Positions 26,885-29,645 of a stretch of DNA of 64,000 nucleotides are shown here, in pieces (position 1 is the stretch's first letter; the number at the start of each line of letters is the position of its first letter). This stretch comes from Chara braunii (lineage: Eukaryota; Plantae; Charophyceae), in NCBI GenBank assembly GCA_003427395.1, contig BFEA01000003.1, forward strand, positions 6,476,208 through 6,540,207, written 5' to 3'. The translations under genes were made by a program, and so were the position numbers. The notes under the pieces were generated by a model, which was not told the DNA's origin, searched no databases, and was given only the letters and a program-made list of their open reading frames with translations.

Positions 26885-29645
26885 TGTGACGAACCACTTC
26901 CCGACCCCGTGCCATCTTTCGTACCCTTTCCTTTGCTTGTATCATACCAACCCCAGGAAAACCCCGTTTTGAGTTCTTGCTTTCGGGTGCCGCATTTTCC
27001 TTTTTGAGAGTTTTTTCGACTGCTGAGTTCTATTTTTCTTCTTGCAAAGTCGAGAAATACATGGGAATTTACGTGCGCCTTAGCGAGCGCACTGGGGATT
27101 GGGCTCGGTAGTTGGGAATTCCGGGATAAGCGAAACTTCAACGTGTCCTTTTTGGGTGTGTGAATGTTCTTGGGCGCGTCGGGGAAAACTCTCGGAATTT
27201 TGCGTGAATACGAATAGGCGTAGGATTTTCTTTTCCCGCGTCGTTTTTTCGCGCGCCGATATGGTGATTTCAATTTTGAATTAGGATAGAAGCAAGTTGT
27301 AACAGTTTCGGTGCCTTTTTTTTTTTTTTTTTGACAGCGCCGTGCATGCAAAAGCTTCCTCCTCTCTGTTCCCCGCATCGCTCCCTCCCGCGCCTCCCTT
27401 CCCTTCTCCCTCCTTTTTCTCTCTCCCCGTAACTGTTTTTCCTTCTTCCTCTCTCTCTCTCTCGCCTTGCTTTCGCGCGCCCATTTCCCTTTCTTGATCA
27501 TCCGAATCTTGGACCTGTCGTGCGCCACCTCTCGCGCCTTTTCTCTTCTCACCCTCTACGTCTGGCGCACGACGCCCGGTCGATCCATCGATAACTCCCG
27601 CTCGCCAATCAGGTGCGTGGATCGATAGGACCTTCCTATCGCGCGACGAATCTGATTGGTTGGACCTTGAGTTTCGAGGGATCAATATGACATTCGTAGA
27701 GCACTCCTCTCAAAGTCTTCTCCTCCTGCTTCTCCTCTTACACCTCAGCCTTCTCGTCACCTTCTCCCCCTTCTATCTCCCCTGTTGCAACTATAAAACC
27801 CGCAAGCGCGTCCGCAAATCTCTCTTACGTTCTCGACTCCTAAGCCAGCTTCCGGGAAGCAGTGGTTAGGCAAAGTGGATTGATGCGAGTCGGAAAGTCC
27901 TGTCGGGTTGACAATAGGCTGGCCGGTTGCGCGCTTGATCGCCACGACGGACTGTGGGATCCGGGCGAACCGTGTCGAGTTTACGACAGCGGGGTGACGA
28001 TCGCAGTGGTGGGAGTTAGCAGACGACGGCCGGGACCGTCGGTGCGGATATGAGGATCGATGATCGGAGTTGAGTTGATTGGCCTGGGGCCATAGTGGAA
28101 TTAACGGCGAATGCGCCTTTGTTGCGGATTGTTATCCTTGGCGTGAGTGTAAGGTGGCGACGCCGAACTTTTCTCTTTTCGGACCTTGTCGTCTTCTATT
28201 TTGACTCTCTCTCTCTCTCTCTCTCTCTCTCTCTCTCTCTCTCTCTCTCTCTCTCTCTCTCTCTCTCTCTCTCTCTCTCTCTCTCTCTCTCTCTCTCTCT
28301 CTCTCTCTCTCTCCTCTCGAATGATGATGCGTCTGAATGATTGTCCCGCTCGTGAATGGAAATGAGTCGACATTCTGTGTGAAAGAACTTCTTCCGGAAC
28401 TCTGCCATTAGTTTCCTGGGTAATCCTCCTACGCAAGGACCCTGTGTTCTTGTCTTGTGAACGGTGGATGCGTGTGTACTGAGTAATGCGATCCATTTTC
28501 CTGTGCATGTCTCATTTTCGCACCTTCCACAGTGAATGCATGTATGAAATGTGTGACTCTTTTGTTGATTAGACGATTGTCATCAGGATTTTGTTTGAGA
28601 ATGCAAGAGTGTTTAGATCTGTAGATCTGTTTTCAATGCGCATGCCATCTGCCTTATGCTGCACGACATCAGCAGCCGAGCCACAAGGCGACCCTGAGAA
28701 ACAGGGCGCCCAGGGACCAACGTTGTGTTGAACTGATCGGACCCGTAGCCATATGCGTGATCAAGCTGATTTGTGTTTGCTCTCTCTCTCTTGTGTCAAA
28801 AAGATTGATTGGGGGACGCGTGAATCGCTTTTGTTCTTAATGACGTCTCATGACATTTTGTGATTGATTGACATGTGGACTGACAAGTACCCTTCGATTG
28901 GGCGCTAGCCTCCCGTATCTCCTATCCCAACGCGACCTTTTCCTTATAGTGAGGAAAGGACACGTGTATGTGAGTGGGACGTACGAGAAGCCGTTGCACA
29001 AATCGGCGGGCAGTATTACTTCCCTCCGGCCAGCCGCTGTTCTAGGTTCGTGGAAGCCGGGTTTGTTATTATCGATACGCACTTCCCACCTTACTCGGTA
29101 TTGTTGCCATCTAACGAGTTGATCGTCATTCCATGGACGGCAGTAGAACACCACTGGCCGCGCACTCTGTGCACCGAATGTCAGCGTTTTGAGCGCTACG
29201 AGTCCAGGGGTTTTCACTACCGTGTGCGGAGTGAAGACGAGCATAAAGAAAGAGCGACGCGACTGAGACCCTCCACGTCAGACTCGGAACTAACCAGCGA
29301 ACGACGACGAGACTTGATACGAAAACGGGACACGCGAAGCGTGCCCAAGTCTTTCTGTTCTAAACGACGGGCTGTAGCCCGGTGGGAGGCACGACAATAC
29401 TTTTTGGATTGAATTTGGATCTTTCCCTCTCTTCCCACCTTGCCCGCACGCGCATTCCACGACGCGCGAAAACGATCGACTTGCTCCATCGGACCAACAC
29501 GGGGGATTTCAGTTCCGTCTGTATCCCCACACTCAATTTCCAAAAATCCTTGGCACATCCCATCCTGCTGTTTTTCTGGGCCTCTTTCCGCACAATTAAC
29601 ACTCCGAATGAAAGACAGCACGGGATGTGAGGTTTGCGCGTCACA
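26885..29645 (+). mobile_element. Solo LTR (Ty3/Gypsy-related), 2761 bp
   Basis: Termini TGTGACG and CGTCACA; flanks GGGA / GGGG. Removing the element plus 4 bp restores the LINE B frame (WKG-SRCEPGE...RDYRLLF). CCAAT boxes near 27605 and 27655, TATAAAA at 27792. The 3' part resembles the Gypsy LTR at 56850-56925. Confidence 0.85.
28873..29412 (+). pseudogene. LTR-internal ORF, 4-Cys domain protein (one in-frame stop at 28906)
   Basis: The frame is open from 28909 to 29412. RPFP...CEWDVR...C...FVIID...PWTAV...W...CTEC aligns with ORF 56115-56564. Confidence 0.75.

Follow-up and report, generated by a model that had tools for sequence, protein, structure and literature searches.

A conserved reading frame inside a probable Ty3/gypsy solo LTR of Chara braunii

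The formation of solo LTRs is normally the host's route to deleting the coding capacity of a retrotransposon, and a gene that sits in the LTR itself, 3' of the promoter, would be spared and would occur in two copies in each element. In this study, we analyzed a locus of Chara braunii that raises this question, namely a 2,761-bp unit that interrupts a LINE and contains a small, cysteine-rich open reading frame (ORF). Is the unit a solo LTR, is the ORF a gene, and does it belong to the LTR rather than to the internal leader of the element? The window, i.e., the whole stretch of DNA analyzed, comprises 64,000 nucleotides of contig BFEA01000003.1; features are given in window positions and lie on the forward strand unless stated otherwise. 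Taken as a whole, it seems fairly likely that the locus represents a Ty3/gypsy solo LTR with a selected gene of 179 codons, the product of which would be a nuclear, metal-binding accessory regulator.

An insertion in a decayed LINE

The host LINE is decayed. Its 5' part (19291-26884), with endonuclease, reverse transcriptase and a C-terminal region, was identified by Pfam and by homology to a second LINE copy (approximately 13000-14400), and its 3' part (29646-30292) by the latter homology, which runs through the C-terminal region on both sides of 26885-29645. As the earlier note had stated, the unit between these parts is bounded by TGTGACG (26885-26891) and CGTCACA (29639-29645), a 7-bp inverted repeat that provides the TG..CA termini of a solo LTR. 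The left repeat, a likely integrase site, was seen in the window copy only, and the right one is shared with a second copy (locus L001) and with contig ends. The unit is flanked by a 4-bp target duplication with one mismatch, GGGA on the left (26881-26884) and GGGG on the right (29646-29649), which falls within the 4-6 bp characteristic of Ty3/gypsy solo LTRs. The length of 4 bp was given by contigs in which the LINE is uninterrupted (two in contig set X1 and three in X2) and by frame arithmetic, and a 5-bp duplication was rejected on the same grounds. It had also been claimed that removal of the unit restores the LINE frame. This did not hold for the exact element, and was true when 1, 4 or 7 extra bases were also removed; because the LINE carries many other stops, the restored frame is local only.

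Within 26885-29645, we found no primer-binding site (PBS), gag/pol, internal direct repeat or second LTR, as is typical of a solo LTR. The second copy, L001, shares approximately 82% identity with the unit, is collinear with it from 27421 to an identical right end, GCGCGTCACA, and has a different flank. For the leftmost 536 bp (26885-27420) no second copy was seen, no further copies were found in viral and prokaryotic contigs, and scans of the collections gave L001 alone, without any element that carries this LTR at its two ends. At the right end (29645), 8 X1 and 7 X2 contigs departed into unlike flanks (agreement 0.46 and 0.48, respectively). The summed X1 contig depth was 14,000-165,000 over 28377-29630 vs 130-590 in the flank, although depth does not equal copy number. 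Our results suggested that the unit (26885-29645) is very probably a solo LTR that belongs to an abundant Ty3/gypsy family: a full-length element would have inserted into the LINE, and its LTRs would then have recombined.

Some other sequences were noted in the course of these comparisons. A 51-bp match at 6972-7022 was rejected as an independent copy, because it is flanked by an N gap and by what we take to be a mate-pair junction adaptor. This adaptor sequence is built into the assembly at 7020-7041, 21150-21187 and 33811-33829, where it adjoins either N gaps or an exact duplication of 75 bp, and local chimeras in the assembly are likely at these sites. In the 3' part of its LTR, L001 contains an AT-rich, MITE-like insert that has inverted ends and measures approximately 530 bp (L001:1980-2507). 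On its minus strand, it also carries a copy of the ORF family that is divergent and frameshifted (L001:2614-3037; 56% to protein P0003). The close-family LTR in L001 is inserted, in reverse orientation, just beyond the conserved part of this ORF copy.

The reading frame and its predicted protein

The ORF (28873-29412) has 179 codons and is broken at codon 12 in the window copy. The previously described arrangement, in which an ATG at 28873 is followed by a single TAG at 28906-28908 and then by 167 open codons, was confirmed, and the frame ends with a TGA at 29410-29412. Whether codon 28906 is a sense codon in the rest of the family was the check proposed along with that description, and the answer was clear: a sense codon was present in 42,248 of 42,434 X1 depth (99.6%; 103 contigs), in all 24 X15 RNA reads and in P0001, which has the same ATG start. 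The premature TAG is thus decay private to the window copy, which is probably inactive as a gene; the stop would have been gained after the solo LTR was formed.

Comparison of the window ORF with that of L001 revealed a dN/dS of 0.20 (0.18 in the core and 0.23 in the tail), whereas 2,000 type-preserving shuffles averaged 0.62 and none was as low as 0.20. More than half of the differences (49 of 91) were at third positions, and no gap was observed in 540 nt, where approximately 9 would be expected from the 18 per 1,076 aligned non-coding bases. The L001 ORF itself is interrupted by a stop at codon 174, and L001 also has an insertion within its 3' part. The dN/dS value, together with the sense codon in 99.6% of the depth, amounts to the conservation as coding sequence by which eORFs and aORFs of plant elements are judged. 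Judging from these sequence comparisons, the ORF represents a genuine coding frame that experienced past purifying selection at the protein level, and it is very probably a real accessory gene.

Homologs of the ORF were found at 28-79% identity in at least four subfamilies. P0004 (175 aa) is open and approximately 50% identical up to its last residues, and P0003 (164 aa) is 35% identical. The only named homolog was P0002 (CBR_g19774 of C. braunii), which is 81% identical over 156 aa. The CBR_g19774 gene model combines a Myb/SANT domain, the LTR ORF domain and a Dcp1 domain; we considered it a probable chimeric gene model rather than a true fusion protein, and it is possible that the LTR was captured as an exon.

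A domain with four cysteines had been claimed for the protein, and alignment of six proteins supported this in large part. The conserved core, C33-x22-C/H56-x43-C100xxC103 (28969-29181), is predicted to bind metal: C33, C100 and C103 were invariant in all six proteins, whereas the remaining position, C56, is Cys in five and His in P0003. These three cysteines and two Trp were among the 12 invariant columns of the alignment, and a fifth cysteine (C162) was not conserved. Three invariant Cys and one Cys/His site would be the zinc ligands, and the AlphaFold2 models built on 5- and 6-row alignments were unusable (pLDDT 39 and 41, respectively). The core is followed by an Arg/Lys-rich tail (29299-29382), which contains 11 K+R in 25 residues and looks NLS-like by inspection of its composition; it appeared to be weaker in P0003 and in a gypsy-element copy at 56115-56564 (6 in 25). 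The pI was approximately 9 in three of five proteins, and none of the five has a membrane segment (maximum 19-residue hydropathy 0.88-1.32).

Searches of Pfam, PHROGs, PDB sequences and the ESM Atlas (TM at most 0.40 in the last) gave no match to a known family or fold, and a Pfam HEWD hit in one of six members (E 0.21) was rejected as noise. Foldseek with the second AlphaFold2 model gave no match at E <= 0.001, which is uninformative. A profile search revealed no longer proteins carrying the domain, and this search was weak because it also missed P0002. Having no recognized family, the protein may be a new accessory factor of TEs, from a lineage near the land plants, and we regard the feature as a real one: an accessory-protein family new to the searched databases, in an unusual place.

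Position of the ORF relative to the primer-binding site

The question of whether the ORF lies in the LTR or in the internal leader could be addressed by a second element in the window. A distant open homolog of 149 codons (56115-56564; 28% identity over 93 aa; tblastn E 2e-08, and 3e-11 with P0004) is located within a gypsy 5' LTR and stops 362 nt 5' of the PBS of that element, TGGTATCAGAGC (56926-56937), which presumably is of the initiator tRNA-Met type. The decayed internal region that follows (57092-62898) shows gag, zinc knuckle, reverse transcriptase, RNase H and integrase, in the order typical of Ty3/gypsy elements, and Pfam gave no match there for protease or chromodomain. After integrase, no 3' LTR was recognized in 62900-64000, at least 1.1 kb of non-coding sequence in which the two forward-strand frames scanned had no Pfam match, and the window does not extend to the 3' LTR of this element. 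Since the homolog lies directly upstream of the gypsy PBS, the gene belongs to the LTR rather than to the internal leader, which bears out what the earlier note had deduced from the solo unit. The left end of this gypsy LTR may be at 54346, and its leader contains a 355-bp tandem duplication (55165-55878; 94% identical).

Similarity between the gypsy LTR and the solo unit was weak and collinear, at 27692-27861 and 27916-28103 (scores 52 and 53; shuffle maximum 36). A third segment, 27285-27534, scored 52 vs 43 for shuffles and is T-rich, and the other 11 of the 14 segments compared were not clearly above shuffles. The two LTRs also have in common the motif GTGAGGTT (29627-29634), which is found in the gypsy element at the PBS junction. 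Five X1 contigs leave the unit at 29634, and their plurality line agrees with the PBS in 9 of its 11 letters (p approximately 1e-4 before allowing for offsets; agreement 0.58). However, the five X2 contigs at 29634 resembled the terminal piece of the unit more than the PBS, so the evidence for a PBS in the close family is partial. Placement of this LTR sequence before a PBS in other copies was read directly for the distant subfamily (56926), and is suggested for the close family by the plurality line of five contigs.

In both PBS observations (one direct junction and one plurality line), the PBS came directly after GTGAGGT, without the terminal 11 nt that include the CA. This 11-nt piece (29635-29645) is present at the inserted right ends of the window copy, L001 and the contigs, and the contigs that leave at 29645 (8 in X1 and 7 in X2) gave no PBS plurality. 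The CA before the PBS was lacking in the single junction read directly, which belongs to a distant and decayed subfamily, and the close-family contigs suggested likewise. According to the standard model, the right LTR end is copied from the bases adjoining the PBS, and the inserted right end and the end before the PBS should therefore agree; the missing CA, if general, would conflict with this model. Possible readings of the asymmetry include GTT-repeat slippage in plus-strand synthesis yielding dead-end copies, a composite right end and a non-standard replication step, and the 11 nt could also have been deleted from the 5' LTRs of other copies. Because the PBS-adjacent copies apparently do not have the last 11 nt, a composite origin of the right end has to be weighed.

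If so, the unit would be an LTR-derived composite or a non-autonomous element that acquired a new right end and is mobilized as one piece, e.g., by a Ginger-like transposase. Ginger and GingerRoot are defined in PMC2836005 and PMC6839031, and in the available parts of these papers Ginger1 and Ginger2 show TGT..ACA termini, a 4-bp target duplication and a size of approximately 2.6-7 kb, all of which fit the Chara unit, as do the absence of the last 11 nt where a PBS follows and the lack of a PBS plurality among contig ends at 29645 (0 of 8 in X1 and 0 of 7 in X2). On the other hand, Ginger has inverted repeats of 40-270 bp, whereas that of the unit is 7 bp; the target differs from CCGG/CCGT, a transposase is absent, and close relatives (at least 80% alike over approximately 50 nt) appear to run into a PBS; moreover, the part of PMC6317226 available gives 4-bp duplications for 6.2% of plant LTR elements. 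A composite element is thus very doubtful. That the ORF might be the relic of a captured gene fragment, hitch-hiking in the LTR, with a selection signal derived from older branches, is highly improbable in our view. A stop was present in both copies examined at the DNA level (window and L001), and the minus-strand homolog in L001 is frameshifted, as would fit a relic; however, dN/dS was 0.20 without indels between copies that differ by 17%, the frame is open in P0003, P0004 and the gypsy copy at 28-50% identity, and no host gene donor was found.

Expression, possible role and known systems

Upstream of the ORF, the solo LTR contains features that could serve its expression. A TATA-like box (27792-27798) lies approximately 1.08 kb upstream of the ATG, differs by one base in L001 and has a counterpart at approximately 54969 in the gypsy LTR. 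A long hairpin with CCAAT/ATTGG (27598-27663), described here without a shuffle control, resembles hairpins of L001 and of the gypsy LTR, and a (CT)n run in the leader (28205-28313) is much shorter in L001. Between the TATA-like box and the ORF there are 24 upstream ATGs. Transcription may start near 27820 and run through the ORF, and a short or spliced RNA could drop most of these ATGs; the leader may be an intron, and L001 has an acceptor-like AG immediately 5' of the ATG. In RNA set X15, 508 of 16,654,260 reads fell on 28320-30000, 18 of them at >=99% and 418 at <95% identity, with the strands at roughly 1:2, and X14 contributed 34 of 8,921,925 reads. Neither a splice joint nor a start peak was among the features listed for these reads over 28320-30000. 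X16 had 0 reads on a 116-bp stretch at the end, and no indexed holder of the sequence is recorded as RNA; these two results speak neither for nor against expression. A 1,552-nt X9 contig (depth 124; putatively RNA) matched part of the ORF of a related subfamily. The reads, which are few, come from diverged copies and fall on both strands, point at most to low-level family transcription that is not assignable to solo copies. The suggestion that solo LTRs of this group may be working promoter-plus-gene cassettes goes beyond what these reads support. It appears quite improbable that the LTR is a complete promoter-intron-gene unit, that solo LTRs still make a trans activator or anti-silencing protein, and that the 5' and 3' LTRs differ as a rule, with the 11-nt integrase end supplied by a non-standard reverse transcription step.

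With regard to function, the size of the protein, its Cys pattern, its basic tail and analogy led us to propose, tentatively and with some doubt, that it may be a nuclear trans-acting regulator of its own family. The protein would bind zinc via three Cys and the Cys/His site, enter the nucleus through the basic tail and act in trans, either raising transcription of the family or countering its silencing. The same LTR gene might instead encode a cytoplasmic RNA-binding or particle-associated factor, such as an RNA chaperone or a silencing suppressor. This is rather unlikely, although the protein is small, Cys-rich and basic, no known DNA-binding fold was recognized, and some subfamilies do not retain the NLS-like tail. 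An analogy for such a factor, with no sequence link, is offered by plant RNA viruses, which have small basic proteins rich in Cys. However, the Chara protein had no similarity to any searched family, and those retrotransposon accessory proteins that have been localized, e.g., Grande GENE23, are nuclear (PMC7264820). Accessory proteins of nuclear location are known from other plant LTR elements (PMC7264820), and a possible working model, by analogy, is provided by the VANC proteins, which the available part of PMC13547354 describes as anti-silencing proteins of VANDAL MuDR transposons, i.e., small TE-encoded trans factors serving their own family. In contrast with the Chara protein, to which no similarity was detected, VANC proteins belong to DNA transposons, and that part of the source gives them as dicot-specific and MAIN-related.

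Among plant Ty3/gypsy elements, the closest counterparts are the eORFs and aORFs, such as the 5' ORF of Ogre, Retand, gene23 of Grande and Athila (PMC7264820, and PMC6317226 in the part available). Like them, the Chara ORF is a conserved accessory frame beyond gag-pol without a recognized domain or assigned function, and some eORF/aORF products are nuclear. Unlike them, it has 179 codons and is located in the LTR, 5' of the PBS, whereas aORFs are placed in the internal region (PMC7264820), and the Pfam domains of plant eORFs/aORFs had no match in it. Because it is inside the LTR, 5' of the PBS, it stays behind in solo LTRs. Nor does it resemble an env-like ORF, since it encodes no transmembrane segment and lies in the LTR, not between pol and the 3' LTR.

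Frames within LTRs are familiar from vertebrate retroviruses, in which HIV nef and foamy-virus bel/tas overlap U3. MMTV likewise carries the sag/naf ORF in the U3 of its LTR, as stated in the accessible part of PMC9412291. As in these viruses, the Chara frame occurs inside the LTR, twice per element, and is kept in solo LTRs. However, it lies approximately 1.08 kb downstream of the TATA-like box (the R/U5 side), whereas sag is located in U3, upstream of the main promoter; in addition, the Chara element is an algal retrotransposon, and no sequence similarity to the retroviral proteins was found. The precedents found were thus vertebrate retroviral U3 ORFs, and plant surveys have covered the internal region and longer frames; as far as the available part of PMC6317226 goes, that survey counted frames of at least 250 codons only. 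The listings from our literature searches contained no report of a gene within an LTR, either for Chara or for gypsy elements of plants, and the repeat library or supplements of the Chara genome may already list this family.

Two other repeat structures were observed in the window. Direct repeats at 45400-46033 and 51760-52406 (83% identical, 6.36 kb apart) surround unassigned ORFs and possibly represent another retroelement. In addition, 37-bp tandem repeats form related clusters at 38929-39149 and at approximately 37290-37390, on either side of a tRNA-Asn gene (38408-38481, minus strand).
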